Shown: in pieces, positions 2,899-55,456 of the stretch | How positions within the stretch are numbered: the stretch's first letter is position 1 | How the letters are laid out: every line of letters begins with the position of its first letter | Assembly (NCBI GenBank): GCA_044426085.1 | Contig: JAWXUU010000011.1 | Span: 3,069 to 67,068 of the forward strand | Length of the DNA: 64,000 nucleotides | Reading direction: 5' to 3' | DNA from: Bacillota bacterium | Lineage (GTDB): Bacteria > Bacillota > Clostridia > Christensenellales > CAMQZB01 | Program-made: the position numbers and the translations under genes | The notes under the pieces: model-generated | Databases searched by the model: none | Told to the model about the DNA's origin: nothing | The model's input: the letters and a program-made list of their open reading frames with translations, nothing else

Positions 2899-4107
2899 AT
2901 GGCAAAAGCTAAATTTGACAGAAGTAAGCCACACGTAAACATTGGTACTGTTGGTCACGTCGATCACGGTAAAACAACTTTGACAGCAGCAATCACAATG
3001 GTTATGGCTGCACAAGGTGGCGCTGAAGCTATGAAGTACGATCAAATCGACAAAGCTCCAGAAGAAAGAGAAAGAGGTATTACAATCAACACAGCTCACG
3101 TTGAATACCAAACACCTAACAGACACTACGCTCACGTAGACTGCCCAGGACATGCCGATTACGTTAAAAACATGATCACAGGTGCTGCACAAATGGACGG
3201 AGCTATTCTTGTAGTTGCTGCGTCTGACGGTCCAATGCCACAAACAAGAGAACACATCTTGCTTGCGTCACAAGTTGGTGTTAAACACATCGTTGTTTTC
3301 ATGAACAAAACTGACCTTGTTGATGATGAAGAACTTCTTGAACTTGTAGAAATGGAAATCAGAGAATTGCTTTCTAAATATGGCTACCCAGGAGACGACA
3401 TCCCAGTTGTTAAAGGTTCAGCTGTTAAAGCAATGGAATCATGCGCAACTTCAGGCAACGCTGATGATGCTGCTTGTGATTGCATTAAAGAACTTATGGA
3501 TGCAGTTGATAACTATATCCCAGCTCCAGAAAGAGATGGCGACAAACCATTCTTGATGCCAGTTGAAGGCGTACACACAATCGCAGGTCGTGGAACAGTT
3601 GTTACAGGCCGTGTAGAAAGAGGTGTATGTAAAGTTGGTGAAACAATTGAAATCGTTGGTATCAAAGAAAAATCAGCTTCAACAGTTGTAACTGGTCTTG
3701 AAATGTTCCACAAATCACTTGATGAAGCTATGGCAGGGGACAACATTGGTGCTCTTCTTCGTGGTGTTGATAGAAACGCCGTTGAAAGAGGTCAAGTACT
3801 TGCTAAACCAGGTTCAATCAAACCACACAAAAAATACGAAGGTCAAGTATACGTACTAACTAAAGATGAAGGCGGACGTCACACTCCATTCTTCAACGGA
3901 TACAGACCACAATTCTTCTTCAGAACTACTGACGTAACAGGTTCACTACACTTGCCAGCAGGCGTAGAAATGGTTATGCCTGGTGATAACATCACTATGA
4001 CAATCGAACTTATCACTCCAGTTGCTATCGAAGAAAACCTACGTTTCGCTATCCGTGAAGGTGGCAGAACTGTTGGTTCAGGTGTCGTAACAAAAATCTT
4101 GGACTAA
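2899..4107 (+). CDS. tuf: Elongation factor Tu
   Basis: [39 protein letters not shown]. 402 aa. AGGAGG at 2884-2889. Confidence 0.97.
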
Positions 4108-36163: not shown

Positions 36164-36247
36164 GCGGATATGGCGGAATTGGCAGACGCGCTAGACTTAG
36201 GATCTAGTGTCTACGACATGGGGGTTCAAGTCCCTTTATCCGCACCA
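36164..36247 (+). tRNA. tRNA-Leu (UAG), integration target of E2
   Basis: Acceptor GCGGATA/TATCCGC, anticodon loop CTTAGGA, long variable arm, encoded CCA. Its 3' part is repeated at 49005-49060 and partly at 49227-49254. Confidence 0.9.
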
Positions 36248-36251
36248 TTCT
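36196..36251 (+). repeat. attL of E2 (56-bp core repeat)
   Basis: CTTAGGATCTAGTGTCTACGACATGGGGGTTCAAGTCCCTTTATCCGCACCATTCT, identical to 49005-49060. Confidence 0.9.
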
Positions 36252-36417
36252 TAAAGAGCCTTTCAGAAATGAAAGGCTCTTTTACTTTTCCCTTTATTTA
36301 TGGGGGTTGTAGCCATTTTTTGTGCTTTTATTTTTATAGATTTTAATTTTTGTTAAATTTCATATTTTTGCTAAAAAACAGCAAATTTTCGCAAAAAAAT
36401 AAAAAAACTGTAATTTA

Positions 36418-36440
36418 TTGGGGTACTAATTGGGGTACTA
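36418..36440. promoter_or_regulatory. Candidate arm-type sites (2 x TTGGGGTACTA, 12-bp period)
   Basis: Direct repeats at 36418-36428 and 36430-36440, just 3' of the int stop. Related TTGGGGACTA / TTGGGGGTT lie at 48934-48952 near the other end. Confidence 0.5.
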
Positions 36441-36476
36441 GATACCATCTTAAAATCAATGCTTTTTTGCGATAGT

Positions 36477-37574
36477 CTACTTTTTGTCTAGTGTATTGTT
36501 ATTAAACTGCTCGGCTATTTGTTGATCAAACTTTTCGCTTTCACGTAATGCAAAATCTTCACGCACATCGGTGTATATATCCATAGTCATGGCTATTGTT
36601 GTGTGCCCCATCCACGATTGCACAACCTTTTGTGATATACCATATTCATGGCAATTTGTCGCAAAGGTCTTGCGTAAATCTCGCACTGTTCGATTTTCAA
36701 AAATTTTGTGAAATTGACGTGTAACATAATCGGGTTTGTAATCAAATTTAAGTTCTTTATCTCCCAACAACCGTTTAACACTATCAAAGAACGGTAACAT
36801 CCTTTGCGACTTCTTAGTTTTTGTCCCATTAACTTTGAAAAAGTTTTCTGTGCATTCTTTCGGATTAAATCGCAAAGCTTCGCTTCTGCGTTGCCCAGTT
36901 AAAAGCACGAATATATAATATTTTTTCAAATTCTCTGACACTGCTTTTGTTTTGAACAAAATTTCTTGTTCTGCTTTCGTTAGTGCAATAGAATGGATTT
37001 TATCATAGACAACAACATTTAATTGCTCCGCTGGATCAATTTTAATTACGTTGTTTATTCTTGCCGTTTTAAACAGTGATTTTATATAGCACCTTATTTT
37101 ATGCCTTGTGTTTCCGCCTTCGATATTATTCAAAAGTCGTTGCAAATCTGCATTAGTTATCCGTCTGATGTTTTTAGAGCCGATATTGCCACGGATATGC
37201 TTATTGGTTATGTACTGAATACTTTTGAATGTATCTTTAGAACATGAAGGCTTTTTATATATTTCTAGCCATTCATCAAGCCATTGCCCTACTGTTGTAA
37301 CAGTAGGCTTTTTTGTTTTTTCTGGTTTAAACTCGGCTTTCCATGCTTTGTATTTTTGTACTACAATAGCTTGTGTTTTGCCGTAAAAACCTATTCTTTC
37401 ACCTTCGTATGTGATTCTTAGCTCCCACACGTTGTTTTTTCTTTTTCTTAAAGTGTTTCCTGCAACTTTCATTATTTCTTCTTCCTTTTGGTTGTTATTT
37501 TGAAATAATGCAGTTTCTTTCGCACTTCCCCCCGCTGGTTCGTACCAGTTATGACTTTGTGTTGCACCATCCAT
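36477..37574 (-). CDS. Tyrosine recombinase / phage-type integrase
   Basis: NNVWELRITYEGERIGFYGKTQ arm-binding-type N-terminus. GQRRSEALRF, LRKTFATNCHEYG, GHTTIAMTMDIY. Coordinates give the maximal ORF. An AAGGAAG RBS favours ATG 37472. An upstream mini-ORF with a strong SD is out of frame (see findings). Confidence 0.88.
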   Translation of the reverse strand: MDGATQSHNWYEPAGGSAKETALFQNNNQKEEEIMKVAGNTLRKRKNNVWELRITYEGERIGFYGKTQAIVVQKYKAWKAEFKPEKTKKPTVTTVGQWLDEWLEIYKKPSCSKDTFKSIQYITNKHIRGNIGSKNIRRITNADLQRLLNNIEGGNTRHKIRCYIKSLFKTARINNVIKIDPAEQLNVVVYDKIHSIALTKAEQEILFKTKAVSENLKKYYIFVLLTGQRRSEALRFNPKECTENFFKVNGTKTKKSQRMLPFFDSVKRLLGDKELKFDYKPDYVTRQFHKIFENRTVRDLRKTFATNCHEYGISQKVVQSWMGHTTIAMTMDIYTDVREDFALRESEKFDQQIAEQFNNNTLDKK

Positions 37575-49985: not shown

Positions 49986-50132
49986 TTAACCCTTTTTTTG
50001 GGGTTTTACCTTGAGTGCTTCGCTAAGTTCAAATTCAGGTCTAACCTCGGTATATGTGTTCATTGTCATACTAATATTAGTGTGTCCAAGCCATTTTTGC
50101 ACTACCTTTGGTGATATCCCTTTTTCGTGGCA
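49986..50132 (-). pseudogene. Integrase remnant (C-terminal about 48 codons only)
   Basis: Minus-strand translation CHEKGISPKVVQKWLGHTNISMTMNTYTEVRPEFELSEALKVKPQKKG* aligns with the C-termini of both intact integrases. Homology stops abruptly near 50132. Two TTGGGGTGGA repeats (49963-49984, 12-bp period) lie 3' of its stop. Confidence 0.75.
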
Positions 50133-50217
50133 GTTTGGGGTGATAATTTTAATATTTTTTCCTAATCTTTATAGGAAGCAAGAGCTTGATTTTTTAGAGG
50201 TTCACAAAGATTATTTT

Positions 50218-50790
50218 ATGGAATTTTATTGGTCAGAAACGGAGGAAGCAAATAATTATAGGTACATTGTTTATGATAGGTATGTGGAAACAAGTGTAAG
50301 TTCAGCAACAAAAGTGCTAGCATTTGGTGATGATTTGTATCTAACATATGTGGCATATCGTGACGATGGAAAGATAAAATTTTGGAGCGCGCCGAAAGAA
50401 GATAAGATGTATACATATAAAGATATCTCGGAAATTCCAAACGACGAATGGAGAATTTACGAGGTCTATTGTTGGGGCAGTCATTCAACAGAAATAGAGT
50501 TTATTTTGGATAGTGGCGCAAGCGACAAGTTCTATACATACGCAAGCTCATATAACACAGTGATGGAGTCAACACCTGATTATGTTGTGACACATAACTA
50601 TATAATGAACGGTGACTATCAAGGTTATTATATGTGGAAAAACGAGTTTTTCTTTAAAGATGGTCTAGCTGTCAAGCAAGTTGAATATATGGATTTGAAT
50701 AACAATAATAACTGGGATGCAGATGAAATCACAAAGATAAAAATCCAAGATATGTATTGCGAAGTTGACTTAACAAAAGTCGGAATATAA
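50218..50790 (+). CDS. Hypothetical protein
   Basis: The track ORF opens at 50011 but its first 69 codons are antisense to the integrase remnant. ATG 50218 (MEFYWSETEEANNYRY..) is the first plausible start. No clear SD. Confidence 0.4.
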   Translation: MEFYWSETEEANNYRYIVYDRYVETSVSSATKVLAFGDDLYLTYVAYRDDGKIKFWSAPKEDKMYTYKDISEIPNDEWRIYEVYCWGSHSTEIEFILDSGASDKFYTYASSYNTVMESTPDYVVTHNYIMNGDYQGYYMWKNEFFFKDGLAVKQVEYMDLNNNNNWDADEITKIKIQDMYCEVDLTKVGI

Positions 50791-51060
50791 GAAACTTTCC
50801 AAGAAATACCTCAAAAAACAACAAAAGCATAGCAGGTTTCCCTGCACAATGCTCCCACGCAACTGCTGTCACCGTTTTTCCCTTTGTCTATAAGGGGAAA
50901 GTGGCATTTTTAAATGACAAGTGGCAGCAGTTCTTATCCTGCTAAGAGTTAATTTAACTTATTGTAGTAGTAAAAATAATAAAACAGCTTATTAATATCT
51001 CTTTATTTAGCATATAATAATGTAAGGGTATATTTGGCAGAAATCTAATTTATAAAAACC

Positions 51061-51089
51061 TTGACAAGTATTTATGCGTATGGTATACT
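51061..51089 (+). promoter_or_regulatory. Strong consensus promoter of the repeat-RNA/toxin locus
   Basis: TTGACA (51061-51066), 17 nt, TGgTATACT (51084-51089). Confidence 0.65.
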
Positions 51090-51134
51090 CTTAATGTAAG
51101 GTAGCTCACTTGAGTATGCTTGCAAGTGGATTGA

Positions 51135-51230
51135 CACTTAAAACCCAGATATTTGCCGAGAAATCGGAGGTTGATAGGCAACACTAAAACCTAGATTAGC
51201 CCGAAAGGGTAGTTGGTGGGCAACACTAAA
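51135..51230 (+). ncRNA. Tandem 47/42-nt structured repeats (candidate type III antitoxin RNA)
   Basis: CACT(T)AAAACC..hairpin..GGCAA units start at 51135, 51182 and 51224. Internal hairpins covary (CCGA-GAAA-TCGG versus CCC-GAAA-GGG). The repeats lie between the promoter and a terminator, directly upstream of a CDS. Confidence 0.5.
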
Positions 51231-51244
51231 ATCAATCAAAAAGC

Positions 51245-51280
51245 AAAGGTTTGCTTCTGCGGAAGTAAACCTTTTGTTTG
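51245..51280 (+). terminator. Hairpin between repeats and downstream CDS
   Basis: AAAGGTTTGCTTC-TGCG-GAAGTAAACCTTT followed by TGTTTG. Confidence 0.5.
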
Positions 51281-51294
51281 TATTAAGGAGACAA

Positions 51295-51921
51295 ATGATA
51301 AAAGATAAGGATGACGCAAGAAAGGTTATTTTGAATGCATCAAAAAAATATGCGGAGCTTTTAGGGAAAGATTTCTTTGTGATAGCAGAAAGGAGTAATT
51401 CATATAAATGGACGGAAGTAGCTTTTTGTGAAAAGAATTTTTTACATCTTACAGGGGTGAAATTTTTCCAAAAGACACAAGAAGATAATGCATTAACATT
51501 TTTTGATAAAGCATTAAATAACAAACTAGCAAACAGTGATTTTGAAATCGTTAATGACCTTACATATAAGAAATTAAGTGTGCTTGAAAATGCTTGTAAT
51601 TTTACGCAAAGCGGTAAAATGCATGGCAATTTCGATGGGCAAAAGAGATACTTGAAAACAGGGGCTTTGGTTGGCACTGTTTCGTGGTATCTTGGGTTTG
51701 TTTATGATGAAGATGAAAAATCAATGTTGCCAAACACTTTGATGAAAGAAGATATTCGTGATGTCAGCGAACCATTTGGAATTATCATGATGATAGAAAA
51801 AACACGTATGGTAGATTTGAAGTATGAACTAGATAACATTGTTTACATAAATAACAAACGTTTCGATGTTAATAATATAAAGAATTTACCGAAAGAAATA
51901 AAAAACAAGATCGAATTTTAA
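51295..51921 (+). CDS. Hypothetical protein, candidate type III toxin (endoribonuclease)
   Basis: AAGGAG RBS before ATG 51295 (track ORF opens at 51274). 208 aa. No family recognised by eye. The call rests on locus architecture only. Confidence 0.4.
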   Translation: MIKDKDDARKVILNASKKYAELLGKDFFVIAERSNSYKWTEVAFCEKNFLHLTGVKFFQKTQEDNALTFFDKALNNKLANSDFEIVNDLTYKKLSVLENACNFTQSGKMHGNFDGQKRYLKTGALVGTVSWYLGFVYDEDEKSMLPNTLMKEDIRDVSEPFGIIMMIEKTRMVDLKYELDNIVYINNKRFDVNNIKNLPKEIKNKIEF

Positions 51922-51940
51922 TTAATTCTATGCATAAGCA

Positions 51941-51978
51941 AAAATGAGCTACTCGGGATTTCCGAATAGCTCATTTTA
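51941..51978. terminator. Bidirectional terminator
   Basis: AATGAGCTA..TAGCTCATT with inner TCGGGA/TCCGA, between convergent genes. Confidence 0.65.
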
Positions 51979-51993
51979 ATGTTATGGTTTGTC

Positions 51994-52260
51994 TTAAAAA
52001 AGACCGATATCAAGCACTGTTTCGATTATGTTGTGTGTACCATCATCAGCGATACTTATGATGTCAACAAAAATCGTATTTTCGTAATTATCAATCATTA
52101 TATTTTGTTTTTCTCTAGGGATTTTTTTATTGTTTTCAGCTTGTCTTACAAATGCCCAATCCTCAGCTTCATCGTAGTTTTCAAAGTATGCGAATTGCCC
52201 ATCTTCATAGTTTTCAAAAGCCAAATAAATTTCATTTGGTTCTAGGTTGTCTTCTCTCAC
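51994..52260 (-). CDS. Hypothetical acidic protein
   Basis: GTG start with GGAG upstream. 88 aa, strongly acidic (EIYLAFENYEDGQFAYFENYDEAEDW). Confidence 0.5.
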   Translation of the reverse strand: MREDNLEPNEIYLAFENYEDGQFAYFENYDEAEDWAFVRQAENNKKIPREKQNIMIDNYENTIFVDIISIADDGTHNIIETVLDIGLF

Positions 52261-52300
52261 GTGTCACTCCTTTTGTTACTTATGCCATGCATTAGCTATT

Positions 52301-52660
52301 TTATTTATGTGTTTTATATAAGTCATAATTTTTGTCAAGCACAACATATCCAAATTCACGCCTAGGTGTGTTAATGATTTTGTCAATACTGGCTCGTTTT
52401 TCGTTTAGGAGAAAAGCAACACAATCCATAACATCAACAATAGAAACATTCTCCACCTTGAGCCATACATCATAGCTATAAGAATAAAGGTTATTCAAAT
52501 CTTCAAAGTTAATTTTGTCGAAAAGCTCGCCCTCTAGTGTTGCCATATTAACTATATCTTCAAAAACTTTTTTGTGGACATAGCTTTGGCTAAGTGCATG
52601 AACAAATTCTTTGGTGTTCGTTTGTGCTTCTTTAATAATAGTTTCAATATCAAATTTCAT
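52301..52660 (-). CDS. Hypothetical protein
   Basis: 119 aa. GGGGG RBS. Co-oriented with 51994-52260. Confidence 0.5.
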   Translation of the reverse strand: MKFDIETIIKEAQTNTKEFVHALSQSYVHKKVFEDIVNMATLEGELFDKINFEDLNNLYSYSYDVWLKVENVSIVDVMDCVAFLLNEKRASIDKIINTPRREFGYVVLDKNYDLYKTHK

Positions 52661-52896
52661 AATATCACCCCCTTAACCGCTTATTGTGCCAAATAAAATA
52701 TAGCAAGATATTTGCTTTTCAGTAGGGAAGTAATACCTGCATTTTTCTAGTGCCATAATAGCCATTTCTCTAAGTTTATTCTTAACATTTACTCCTTTCT
52801 GCGATTGCAGTGCTTTTTATGTCTTTAACCCTCAAATTGCTTTTTTTGAGAGTTTTTGAAGCCTTTAAATTTAATTATTGAAAAGTTGAAATATTC

Positions 52897-53180
52897 ATTT
52901 TGAGCCTAGCTCTGTGTTTGTTTAATATGAAAGTTTATCGCTTTTTCAGGGACCGTTTCGTCGCCTTATGCCACCAATAGAACTGAATTTGTAAAATTAT
53001 CAAGAAATCGCACAAACGATAATAAAAAAATTTATTGAAGTAAAACGAAAAGAAAATTTTTTATGATTCTTTAGAATTTGAAAAATTATGTTATATTCAG
53101 AGTGGCTTGGGGACGAAATGGCTGAAAAACGATAAACATAAAATAAGCACAGCTCAAATTTAAAATGAAAATGAAAACAC
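52897..53180. repeat. About 285-bp element with about 70-bp imperfect terminal inverted repeats
   Basis: The left arm ..TTTATCGCTTTTTCAGGGACCGTTTCGTCGCC pairs with the right arm GGGGACGAAATGGCTGAAAAACGATAAACATAAAATAAGCACAGC.. A solo copy of the right arm lies at 61553-61632. Confidence 0.6.
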
Positions 53181-53845: not shown

Positions 53846-54085
53846 ATGAAATTAAATGCAGCGATTGCAAAAAGAGTTATAGAATTAAAAGAAGAAAGTG
53901 GATTAAATCTATATGCGTTTGGCAAGCTAGTTGGTGTTGCTAGTTCAACACTAGATGATGTAATAAAATGTAAAAATGATACTGTCAAAATAAGAATCAT
54001 TTTTGAAATTACTCAAGGGTTAAATATATCTTTAAAAGAATTTTTCGATAGACCATACTTCGATAAAGAAAATCTAATAGACTAA
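53846..54085 (+). CDS. XRE-family HTH protein (1 of 3 in tandem)
   Basis: MKLNAAIAKRVIELKEESGLNLYAFGKLVGVASSTLDDVIK.. 79 aa. GGGGG RBS. Confidence 0.7.
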   Translation: MKLNAAIAKRVIELKEESGLNLYAFGKLVGVASSTLDDVIKCKNDTVKIRIIFEITQGLNISLKEFFDRPYFDKENLID

Positions 54086-54108
54086 TGCCTATATAAGAGG
54101 TGGATATT

Positions 54109-54315
54109 ATGAAATTTAGTGAAAGATTGAAAGAATTGCGACAAGAACGAAATTTAACAACAACATCGCTAGGAAAAGAAATTGGTGTAAGCAATTCAAC
54201 TATATCAAGATGGGAAAACGAAGAAATTGTGCCAACCATTATTTATTTGTATAAACTAGCTGTATTTTTGAAGTTAGTGCAGATTTTTTTGATTGGCTTA
54301 AGTGATGAAATTTGA
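54109..54315 (+). CDS. XRE-family HTH protein (2 of 3)
   Basis: MKFSERLKELRQERNLTTTSLGKEIGVSNSTISRWENEE.. GAGG before ATG 54109. Confidence 0.7.
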   Translation: MKFSERLKELRQERNLTTTSLGKEIGVSNSTISRWENEEIVPTIIYLYKLAVFLKLVQIFLIGLSDEI

Positions 54316-54332
54316 TTTTTTAGAGGAATAAT

Positions 54333-54575
54333 ATGAAACTTACAACAGCTGTCAGCAAGCGAATAAGAGAACTTTTGAATGAAAGAGGCATGACTCAATA
54401 TCAGCTTTATAAAAAATCAGGCGTGCCACAATCTACAATAAGCACAATATTATCAGAAAAAGACAAAACATCAAAATTGTTGACAATAGCGCAAATTGCA
54501 CAAGGCTTTGATATGGGGCTGGAAGAATTCTTTGCAAGTGCAAATTTCTCTTTTACGGAGTTAGATGTTGAATAG
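54333..54575 (+). CDS. XRE-family HTH protein (3 of 3)
   Basis: MKLTTAVSKRIRELLNERGMTQYQLYKKSGVPQSTISTILSEKD.. 80 aa. Confidence 0.7.
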   Translation: MKLTTAVSKRIRELLNERGMTQYQLYKKSGVPQSTISTILSEKDKTSKLLTIAQIAQGFDMGLEEFFASANFSFTELDVE

Positions 54576-54667: not shown

Positions 54668-55456
54668 ATGGAACGCATAAATTACGCTATTGATAATATA
54701 TTGGAACATGTTCACGAATCTAGCGGGATAGATAATACTAAATCATTAGGGTTAAAATTTGAATGGTTAAATACAAGAGAGAATAACTATAGATTTGAGG
54801 ATGTAGATAATTTAATATTATATTATTATGATTCAATTATAGTCAAAACATTGTTTTTAACCAGCGGCTTTAATGAGGGTATATTTTTATGTAAAGCTAA
54901 CGACAAAAAAGAAATTTGTCTAAAAAAAGAAATTTGTCTAAAAAAATGGATTTGTCTAAAAAAAAGGATTTTTCTAAAAAACGAAATTGATCTAAAAAAG
55001 GGGATTTGCCTAGAGAAGAGATTCATTATAAAAACGACAAGAGCGTTAAGGAAAATGTATTTACTATTGCAGTATGCAGAGGCATCAATCAAGGAGTTGA
55101 TAGATAGCAATAGCAAACAATGTACGGTAGGTGATTTCTTTAAGAGATATGATTTAACTGAGGATATACTTGATAGTAAGACTAATCTGAGTAATGAATA
55201 TTTATTTTCTAAGTCCTCACGGAGCACAGATAAAGATAAGTATAATTATTATTTATCCAATGTTTATAAAACAGTAATTTTTTTAGAGAATTTTTATTTA
55301 GAAGTAGGTGAGGGTAAAAAGAAATCTTTCAGTGAGTTTTTATGTTATGACTTATCTGAGCTAGATAAAATAATCGAAGAGGGCATAGAGTTATTTATCA
55401 AGTTAAATGAAAATTTCACTAATTATTTATTGGAGCAAGAATTATATGAGTTGTAA
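54668..55456 (+). CDS. Hypothetical protein with internal hexapeptide tandem repeat
   Basis: 262 aa. KKEICL KKEICL KKWICL KKRIFL KNEIDL KKGICL. Its stop overlaps the start of the next gene. Confidence 0.55.
   Translation: MERINYAIDNILEHVHESSGIDNTKSLGLKFEWLNTRENNYRFEDVDNLILYYYDSIIVKTLFLTSGFNEGIFLCKANDKKEICLKKEICLKKWICLKKRIFLKNEIDLKKGICLEKRFIIKTTRALRKMYLLLQYAEASIKELIDSNSKQCTVGDFFKRYDLTEDILDSKTNLSNEYLFSKSSRSTDKDKYNYYLSNVYKTVIFLENFYLEVGEGKKKSFSEFLCYDLSELDKIIEEGIELFIKLNENFTNYLLEQELYEL
54905..55030 (+). repeat. 18-bp tandem repeat (6-7 copies) inside the CDS
   Basis: AAAAAAGAAATTTGTCTA x2, followed by progressively diverged copies, in frame. Confidence 0.85.

Follow-up and report, generated by a model that had tools for sequence, protein, structure and literature searches.

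The type III class of toxin-antitoxin systems currently comprises three related toxin families, ToxIN, CptIN and TenpIN, together with AvcID and AbiF. The CptN toxin, for which there is a structure from Eubacterium rectale, has 155 amino acids (aa) and a ToxN/Kid-like fold (PMC4627078). Its RNA partner, CptI, forms an H-type pseudoknot with a 1-nucleotide (nt) first loop and an A-rich loop, and binds CptN in a closed 2:2 complex (PMC4627078). The repeats of TenpI are reported to be longer and non-identical, with a conserved A-run for which A-minor contacts have been proposed (PMC12283969). Phage PhiTE carries pseudo-ToxI repeats and thereby escapes ToxIN (PMC3475682). Iyer et al. interpreted in 2017 the PBECR domains as offensive RNases that are injected by phages or plasmids, and mentioned neither an RNA partner nor a toxin-antitoxin role (PMC5512222). 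Here, we describe a locus in a 64,000-nt stretch of a Bacillota genome (“the window” below, meaning the whole stretch), in which a repeat-containing structured RNA precedes a 208-aa open reading frame (ORF) of the PBECR4 family. We give a probability of roughly 70% to the reading, drawn from sequence analysis, that this locus represents a new type III-like family of RNA antitoxin and RNase toxin.

The layout of the locus is that by which the type III class is recognized (criteria of Blower et al. 2012, cited through PMC12283969): tandem repeats, here two imperfect units plus partial ones, lie between a promoter and a terminator of the Rho-independent type, and the terminator stands ahead of the putative toxin gene (Table 1). 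By locus criteria this is a type III system; by toxin homology it is none of ToxIN, CptIN, TenpIN, AbiF or AvcID. An earlier, sequence-only reading of this DNA had listed the parts of the layout, and all of them were recovered: the promoter TTGACA-17-TG-TATACT, the repeat units, the terminator, the Shine-Dalgarno (SD) sequence and the 208-aa ORF. The promoter agrees with the consensus at 11 of 12 positions, has its TG at 51081-51082, and is the top promoter-like site within 50800-52100. A comparable promoter occupies the same relative position in the closest relative of the locus (L001; related loci and contigs carry L numbers), in most other related loci, and in phage phi1605.

The repeat units of the window are 47 and 42 nt long and ~70% alike, with indels between them. 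A 20-nt direct repeat (GTTGATAGGCAACACTAAAA / GTTGGTGGGCAACACTAAAA) starts at 51170 and 51212, a spacing of 42 nt, and a 12-nt direct repeat (TAAAACCCAGAT / TAAAACCTAGAT) starts at 51139 and 51185, a spacing of 46 nt; GGCAACACTAAAA occurs twice in the window, compared with 0.21 occurrences expected. Tandem Repeats Finder reported no array over 50900-51400, because of the unequal length of the units, their limited likeness and the indels. The repeats were established instead by direct-repeat search and comparative alignment, and the array is beyond chance because it is conserved in other genomes. The terminator that separates the RNA from the ORF has a folding energy of -20.2 kcal/mol (z = -5.9). 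In a crude scan of 78 related loci, at least 59 had a strong hairpin and T-run in the interval that separates RNA and gene; in most of the remainder, TTTAAA follows a hairpin. The terminator loop (51257-51262 in the window) is nearly always C(UNCG)G in the related loci, as CUGCGG, CUACGG or CUUCGG, a conservation that exceeds the need of an ordinary terminator loop.

Table 1. Features of the PBECR4 locus, in positions of the window.
Feature	Position	Strand	Details
Sigma-70-type promoter	51061-51089	+	-35 TTGACA 51061-51066, 17-nt spacer, -10 TATACT 51084-51089
Whole non-coding RNA, ~189 nt	51096-51284	+	Likely start 7 nt downstream of the -10 hexamer; extends through the terminator U-tract
P0, variable 5' hairpin	51096-51123	+	GTAAG...CTTGC, inner GCTC/GAGT stem (RNAfold)
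H0, hairpin AAGTG-GATTGA-CACTT	51124-51139	+	Partial unit, counterpart of a unit's 3' end; T3 pairs with its loop GATTGA 51129-51134
T1	51140-51147	+	A-run 51140-51143 and CCCA 51144-51147; CCCA pairs with the H2 loop
hp1, CCGA-GAAA-TCGG, unit 1	51156-51167	+	80-91% paired; 5/5 pairs with two-sided changes
H1, GTTG-ATAGG-CAAC	51170-51182	+	Loop TAGG 51175-51178 pairs with T2; stem 98-99% paired
T2	51186-51193	+	A-run 51186-51189 and CCTA 51190-51193; pairs with the H1 loop
hp2, GCCC-GAAA-GGGT, unit 2	51199-51210	+	91-92% paired; 5/5 pairs with two-sided changes
H2, GTTG-GTGGG-CAAC	51212-51224	+	Loop TGGG 51217-51220 pairs with T1
T3	51228-51237	+	A-run 51228-51231 and TCAATC 51232-51237; partial unit, counterpart of a unit's 5' end; pairs with the H0 loop
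Intrinsic terminator, RNA/ORF boundary	51245-51284	+	13-bp stem (hairpin 51245-51274), C(UGCG)G loop, T-rich tail
Shine-Dalgarno sequence AAGGAG	51285-51290	+	4 nt 5' of the ATG, direct reading
208-aa ORF, Pfam PF18813 PBECR4, putative toxin	51295-51921	+	ATG 51295-51297; stop codon ends at 51921
Hairpin terminator 3' of the ORF	51941-51977		Common to the convergent gene 51994-52260 (-); -19.7 kcal/mol, z = -6.6

Evidence that the RNA and the gene belong together came from the comparison of loci. L001, on a contig of a metagenome-assembled genome (MAG), has the same promoter, RNA and terminator as the window, and its flanking genes are unrelated to those of the window. The RNA is 83% identical between the two over its full length and 86% identical over its core, compared with 69% for the DNA of the ORF and 64.5% for the flanks. 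Protein-guided retrieval with an 11-sequence query gave 80 further loci from genomes of Clostridia, whose proteins are 28-42% identical to that of the window. These are mostly MAGs of Lachnospiraceae, Oscillospiraceae and Monoglobus, apart from one binned as Synergistaceae and another as Bacteroides. When the window RNA was used as a single-sequence nhmmer query, it matched the region just 5' of the gene in ~50 of the 80 loci, and a profile search of the RNA matched 79. With a covariance model, R1, the RNA was found directly upstream of the gene and on the same strand in 81 of 81 sampled PBECR4 loci. One locus, L008, had at first given the impression of a PBECR4 gene that lacks the RNA; R1 detected a diverged three-unit RNA there. 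Clustering of ORFs over the 80 loci revealed no conserved neighbouring protein: the flanking genes vary between loci, and the recurrent “ORFs” were only antisense artefacts over the RNA and the gene. The conserved unit is thus the RNA plus PBECR4, so that the two-part module proposed from the window alone is upheld by the R1 scan and the clustering, without a protein partner.

The window contains one copy of the RNA core, which scores 81.8 bits with R1. A search of 50000-53000 against Rfam 15 gave no match over the RNA (51096-51284) at E up to 10, and the RNA of 10 typical loci gave no match at E up to 1. The RNA is a conserved structured RNA absent from Rfam. The literature searched contained nothing that links PBECR4 to an RNA, and searches with the RNA core sequences returned nothing relevant; besides Iyer et al., the one paper there that names the family is an Enterococcus transcriptome study. 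No earlier account was found of the RNA, nor of any RNA that partners PBECR4. The complete module also occurs in Erysipelothrix phage phi1605 (MF172979.1), where a PBECR4-matching “hypothetical protein” is encoded behind TTGACA-17-TATACT, an unannotated RNA (83.6 bits) and a terminator, and where the module is flanked by a gene for a type III restriction subunit on one side and a recombinase gene on the other. The annotated PBECR4 start in this phage (L235, 2785-3615) is at locus position 3058; alignment and an SD-like sequence favour the ATG at 2990. Some loci have two or three RNA-PBECR4 modules in tandem (L064, 2161-2292, 3179-3316 and 5237-5367; L025, 2290-2423 and 3338-3477), with some of the genes frameshifted or fragmented. 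About 7 of the 80 retrieved PBECR4 genes look truncated, which could reflect toxin inactivation or errors of MAG assembly.

The structure of the RNA was assessed by covariation in two MAFFT alignments made without regard to that structure, A4 (50 sequences below 90% identity) and A5 (a 43-sequence core). In A4, 86% of cells are paired (73% in shuffles) and covariation is 0.433 (0.207 in shuffles, with 0 of 500 reaching the observed value; 0.09-0.14 in slid controls). The corresponding values in A5 are 95.1% (80.3%) and 0.475 (0.197, with 0 of 500; 0.05-0.11). Covariation supports five hairpins and three pseudoknot helices, and the three tertiary helices are the best-supported part of the fold. 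The helix between the H0 loop and T3 is 96-98% paired with two-sided changes at 6 of 6 pairs, that between T1 and the H2 loop is 100% paired (50 and 43 sequences) with such changes at 4 of 4 pairs, and that between the H1 loop and T2 is 94-95% paired, again at 4 of 4. For example, the H1 loop and T2 read TAGG/CCTA in the window, CAAG/CTTG in L001 and CAGG/CCTG in most Lachnospiraceae, and the H2 loop and T1 read TGGG/CCCA in the window versus CAGA/TCTG or CGGA/TCCG elsewhere. The H0 loop and T3 change from GATTGA/TCAATC in the window to GGTTGA/TCAACC in Lachnospiraceae, GACTGA/TCAGTC in L012 and GTGCAA/TTGCAC in L008. A set of viral RNAs, with sequences independent of the seed in a model-fitted alignment, is 93.7% paired, compared with 72% in shuffles. 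Single-sequence folding with RNAfold, on which no weight was placed, recovered the local hairpins and not the tertiary helices, and the z-score that it gave for L001 was unremarkable.

The tertiary helices connect different units of the array. Pairing of each T segment with the H loop of its own unit (T1-H1 and T2-H2) was considered and rejected, since at 76.6% it is at the level of the shuffles (75.1%). Perfect cross-unit pairing is found in 36 of 43 sequences and perfect within-unit pairing in 6 of 43, the latter being the sequences that have identical T segments and H loops in both units. The units are modules of one fold and not independent, near-identical repeats: the 5' T segment of each full unit pairs with the H loop of the other. 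H1 and T2 form a local H-type pseudoknot (S1 of 4 base pairs (bp), L1 of 1 nt, S2 of 4 bp and an A-rich third loop of 7 nt), and H0 and H2 swap tails with one another. Because the H loops pair with T segments, each H stem is part of a pseudoknot beside an A-run. Because H0 is the counterpart of a unit's 3' end and T3 that of its 5' end, the array consists of a partial unit, two full units and a second partial unit, and these flanking partial units place each full unit between equivalent junctions, of which there are three in all. The number of units is one in L024, L040 and L083, two in most loci, and three in L008 and L026; several loci have near-identical units of 49-57 nt. With n as the unit number, a single pairing rule, H(i) loop with T(n+1-i), describes the forms that have one or two units; in the three-unit forms the units are identical to one another.

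The remaining helices are local. The two GAAA hairpins predicted from the window, CCGA-GAAA-TCGG and CCC-GAAA-GGG, both fold as anticipated, and the predicted covariation of their stems is strong in the alignments for hp1 and hp2. While these covarying stems are a general feature, the tetraloops are not: most relatives have loops of ~9 nt, on a 5-bp stem in the case of hp1. L001 has TGCT-GAAA-GGCA at the position of hp2. The H1 stem GTTG/CAAC is replaced in relatives by GCTG/CAGC, and in phi1605 by GTCT/AGAC. The pairs of the H0 stem also covary (GC, 36; AU, 6). A hairpin is present at the position of P0 in most loci; its sequence is not conserved, and its MAFFT columns pair in 44% of cells. 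In a variant of the RNA, a larger conserved insert (GACGCT...AGCGTAA...GGGCTTGCACAT...GAGCCGT...) is found in or in place of unit 1, with H0, H2 and T3 kept (L029, ~2207-2411; L051, 2271-2417; L101, 280-448; L112, 651-820).

Together, linkage and covariation bear on the simplest alternative, that the likeness to type III loci is superficial, the repeats being chance or decaying sequence and the ORF an ordinary prophage gene with no functional tie to them. The blank result of Tandem Repeats Finder and the ~70% likeness of the window units would be consistent with such an explanation. The presence of the RNA upstream of 81 of 81 homologues, its conservation in excess of that of the ORF, and strong covariation that includes long-range helices refute it, leaving it with a vanishingly small probability.

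The family name PBECR4 stands for “phage-Barnase-EndoU-ColicinE5/D-RelE like nuclease 4”. The ORF matches the PF18813 profile at E = 1.7e-23 over positions 2-183 of 188, with a whole-domain score of 84.4 bits that lies above the Pfam gathering threshold (cut-off 27). An exhaustive search of a library of 50%-identity representatives gave 614 PBECR4 relatives at E <= 0.001, most of them ~200 aa long. Only one relative exceeds 40% identity, namely P0002, encoded in L001, at 59-60% aa identity, and a word-indexed protein search gave a single non-identical homologue. H51 (in the motif NFLHLTG), K93, G127 and P146 are invariant in the alignments, and E41, T53, N147, T148, D153 and R155 are nearly invariant, T148 being at least 90% conserved. 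The window protein retains the conserved E41, H51, T53, K93, N147, T148, D153 and R155. In an AlphaFold2 model of the ORF (predicted local distance difference test score 94.6, predicted template modelling (TM) score 0.90), H51 lies in the helix 46-53 and T148 in the strand 143-150 of the late beta-meander. This placement fits the pattern of His plus Thr/Ser in active PBECR families (Iyer et al. 2017, PMC5512222). PBECR4 itself was defined as a family of predicted RNases (PMC5512222), in line with the earlier proposal that the downstream ORF comes from an RNase family. The ORF is predicted to be a metal-independent endoRNase with a BECR fold.

The ORF was compared with the toxins of described systems in several ways. 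A profile search of all sequences in the PDB with the ORF gave nothing significant, and no ToxN, AbiQ or CptN at E up to 10; the 50 best PDB chains in a Foldseek search with the model included no ToxN, CptN, TenpN or AbiQ. A Pfam scan at E up to 1 returned PBECR4 only, and PHROGs returned only noise. Two viral proteins have the same fold as the ORF, with TM scores of 0.66-0.70. Homology to ToxN or AbiQ found no support in Pfam, NCBIfam, the PDB profile search and Foldseek, and the same four gave no match to TenpN. For CptN there was no PDB profile or Foldseek match, and the ORF has 208 aa versus 155. AbiF and AvcID were rejected because Pfam found neither an Abi_2/HEPN nor a cytidine deaminase domain, and PADLOC was blank. 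As there is no sequence or fold match, the ORF is outside the three classical type III toxin families. The sequence-only reading had hinted at CptIN from the form of the repeats; that hint is not supported, since a similarity of the ORF to CptN, ToxN, TenpN or AbiQ could be detected neither by sequence nor by fold. Structure prediction and comparison with ToxN, AbiQ and CptN, which the same reading had put forward as a check, thus gave a confident model that resembles none of them.

Additional evidence came from copies of the RNA that stand apart from the gene. These were sought RNA-first, with an exact 23-nt motif that spans H2 and T3, followed by model R1. The motif matched 29 viral contigs, and R1 confirmed the RNA in 26. 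Among 25 viral contigs for which the downstream region was checked with the PBECR4 profile, 7 have PBECR4 and 18 have none within 1.3 kilobases (kb). Among 111 metagenome sites with enough downstream sequence, PBECR4 is present in 69 and absent in 42 (~38%); some of these 42 are decayed genes (L230, like L105 and L109), and L216 may precede a divergent protein. One orphan lineage consists of six near-identical copies on contigs of 81-141 kb. The member checked, L087, has genes for a head maturation protease and a Dam-type methylase, together with an NrdD gene that a homing endonuclease interrupts, and is on these grounds a genuine phage. As read by eye, its RNA copy keeps every helix and is surrounded by a closing stem of ~20 bp. 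No PBECR4 lies downstream of the near-identical orphan copies in L087 (2226-2357), L088, L089, L090, L097, L104 and L150; in copies of the L087 type, the long closing stem AATATCAGAGAAGGATTTGGC ... GCCAATCCTTCCTCTGATATT is followed by the Dam-type methylase gene. Among the metagenome contigs, a recurrent gene-less family has its own terminator, then a convergent gene, in an integrase-carrying element (L159). The neighbourhoods of orphan RNAs have no common protein neighbour, and blastn of the orphan phage RNA against GenBank phages returned nothing.

Linkage that is strict when approached from the protein and looser when approached from the RNA is the pattern expected of a protective trans-acting RNA. 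The phage-borne orphan copies fit a trans-acting antitoxin, and so fit the type III-like RNA partner that had been proposed from the window. By analogy, they suggest mimicry of the pseudo-ToxI kind, and the L087-type copy may be a decoy antitoxin of the phage. Some orphan RNAs on viral contigs adjoin transfer RNA (tRNA) genes (L098, 5129-5264; L103, 4374-4511; L110, 1417-1554) and may be co-transcribed and processed with the tRNAs. Colicin-type BECR RNases target tRNA, and the adjacency would be of interest if PBECR4 did so too. In L095 (1121-1254, minus strand), PBECR4 is absent behind the RNA and its terminator; a 51-aa ORF and a gene of the Fic/Doc family (Pfam Fic, E = 7e-15) stand there, through either a swap of the toxin cassette or coincidence.

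The orphan copies also bear on two other readings of the RNA. It could be a cis-acting leader, for instance a riboswitch or a protein-binding attenuator, that sets read-through of the terminator and thereby the expression of PBECR4, and that does not neutralize the protein. The RNA, terminator and ORF do form one transcription unit, the terminator directly follows the structured region, and the fold is as complex and conserved as that of a riboswitch aptamer. However, the copies that phages and integrated elements carry without the gene have retained the whole structure and often a terminator of their own, and a count of one to three modules is unusual for a ligand-binding aptamer. Moreover, T3 and the terminator stem do not overlap, with no conserved antiterminator pairing seen, as judged by eye, and a cis-acting leader would leave a toxin-like RNase with no immunity factor. 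We regard this explanation as decidedly unlikely.

Alternatively, the RNA could be a cofactor, scaffold or natural substrate of PBECR4, the pair being a ribonucleoprotein enzyme or a system by which mobile elements mature RNA, and the orphans would then be free-standing small RNAs with a role of their own. This possibility, which is unlikely, would account for linkage that is strict from the protein (81/81) and loose from the RNA (PBECR4 at 62% of metagenome sites and in 7 of 25 viral contigs), as well as for the orphan copies beside phage tRNA genes (L098, L103/L110). Yet the variable positions of the RNA covary with one another (T segments with H loops) and have no evident external target, and the loops of hp1 and hp2 can be reduced to GAAA tetraloops, as they are in the window. 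The promoter and terminator are arranged so as to favour an excess of RNA, as in type III antitoxins, and PBECR domains in polyvalent phage proteins act without this RNA (PMC5512222).

On the type III-like reading, the strong promoter would drive a structured RNA of ~190 nt, and the terminator would pass only a fraction of the transcripts into PBECR4. The RNA should then outnumber the protein, because the terminator limits read-through. PBECR4 would be the toxin, its conserved residues including His51 on a helix and Thr148 on the late strand, together with Lys93, Arg155 and Glu41. Each RNA module comprises an A-run, a short T segment, a variable hairpin, and a 4-bp H hairpin with a 5-nt loop, and the folded RNA would bind and block the RNase. 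The RNase would probably first cut the RNA at the three equivalent H/A-run/T junctions, which would leave two units of ~42-52 nt joined by reciprocal pairing. The odds of such cutting are about even, with action of the uncut RNA equally possible. Two reciprocally paired units would be well matched to a closed 2:2 complex of protein and RNA, by analogy with CptIN. Upon a stop of transcription or degradation of the RNA, for example during phage infection, the freed RNase would cleave cellular or phage RNA.

Several points weigh against this reading. The RNase activity of the ORF is a prediction at the level of the family, taken from the Pfam/Iyer assignment only. Foldseek with the ORF model gave no PDB match at E <= 0.001; the best match has E = 0.078 and a TM score below 0.2, and the RelE and CdiA chains in the list have a probability of at most 0.18. 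PADLOC and NCBIfam did not recognize the ORF. The units differ in most loci and pair together, which means that the RNA may act as one uncut molecule, whereas cutting of the classical antitoxins yields identical units. Among the viral lineages that bear orphans, phage identity was confirmed for one. Lastly, many RNA copies have no gene, some of them being simply decayed loci (L105, L109, L230), and the RNA might have a function of its own. The type III-like reading can also be put more broadly: that solo PBECR4 plus the pseudoknotted RNA constitutes a hitherto unrecognized, widespread type III or abortive-infection family of gut Clostridia and Erysipelotrichia, with a toxin fold unrelated to ToxN, CptN and TenpN, with an antitoxin made of two different units that find one another through reciprocal loop-tail pairing, and with phages that counter it with the RNA alone. 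In this broader form we lean towards it, if only slightly.

The window comes from the chromosome of a spore-forming Firmicute of low GC content (36%) and includes genes for EF-G and SpoIVA and two tRNA arrays. A tyrosine integrase gene at 36477-37574 (minus strand) adjoins an array of 7 tRNA genes that ends in tRNA-Leu (36164-36247), and 36164-37574 probably marks the attachment end of an integrated element, with the PBECR4 locus inside it. From the integrase to past the locus, the genes are mostly unassignable, with an HTH_36 protein, a YpsA/SLOG protein and several predicted ORFs of the XRE-type helix-turn-helix (HTH) class. The integrase/tRNA-Leu junction and the gene content of this stretch indicate that the module probably lies in an integrated element. 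Megablast of the 13 kb around the locus against phages and plasmids returned nothing, as did tblastn against plasmids. Elsewhere in the window, the ORF at 22048-23229 matches Rep_trans and Rol_Rep_N, the domains of a rolling-circle replication initiator, in a chromosomal context, and may be a remnant of an integrated plasmid or other mobile element. A 262-aa ORF at 54668-55456 has a short tandem peptide repeat, KKEICLKKEICLKKWICLKKRIFLKNEIDLKKGICLEK, and no Pfam match; by eye, three small ORFs just upstream of it (53846-54575) have the look of XRE-type HTH proteins.

If the type III-like reading is true, the combination of a repeat RNA, a terminator and an RNase toxin has had an independent origin with another protein scaffold, and solo PBECR4 genes, which have so far been read only as weapons of phages and plasmids, would gain a role. 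An RNA with three covariation-supported pseudoknots and a pairing rule between units would be useful for work on RNA structure and for the design of orthogonal RNA-protein pairs, and the orphan copies in phages suggest a conflict by RNA mimicry between gut bacteria and phages.

There are parallels with each of the known systems. Like AbiF and AvcID, the locus pairs a putative protein toxin with an upstream non-coding RNA as its putative antitoxin, an arrangement that in those systems has a link to phage defence. Their toxins are a HEPN/Abi_2 protein and a cytidine deaminase, whereas the ORF has neither domain. The ORF resembles the PBECR domains in polyvalent proteins of phages and conjugative elements in being a full-length, solo PBECR4 with the His and Thr/Ser positions. 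The units are imperfect and contain an A-run, as in TenpIN; the toxin is of another family, and pairing between units has not been described for TenpI. The likeness to ToxIN and AbiQ extends to the layout of the locus, the partial repeats at the ends of the array and the A-rich junctions between units, and the orphan RNA copies in phage genomes parallel the pseudo-ToxI of PhiTE. In contrast, ToxI consists of near-identical 36-nt repeats that each fold alone, the ToxN_toxin family is unmatched here, and abortive infection is known for ToxIN and AbiQ, whereas the present locus is known from its sequence alone. In form the locus also resembles CptIN, a system of Lachnospiraceae that likewise occurs in gut Clostridia and has a promoter, about two tandem repeats of ~45 nt, a terminator and a toxin gene, and an RNA whose H-type pseudoknot has a 1-nt first loop and an A-rich loop. 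The 208-aa PBECR4 protein is unrelated to the CptIN toxin and the RNA sequences are unrelated as well. Moreover, the pseudoknots of the present RNA form between units, whereas those of CptI form within one unit.

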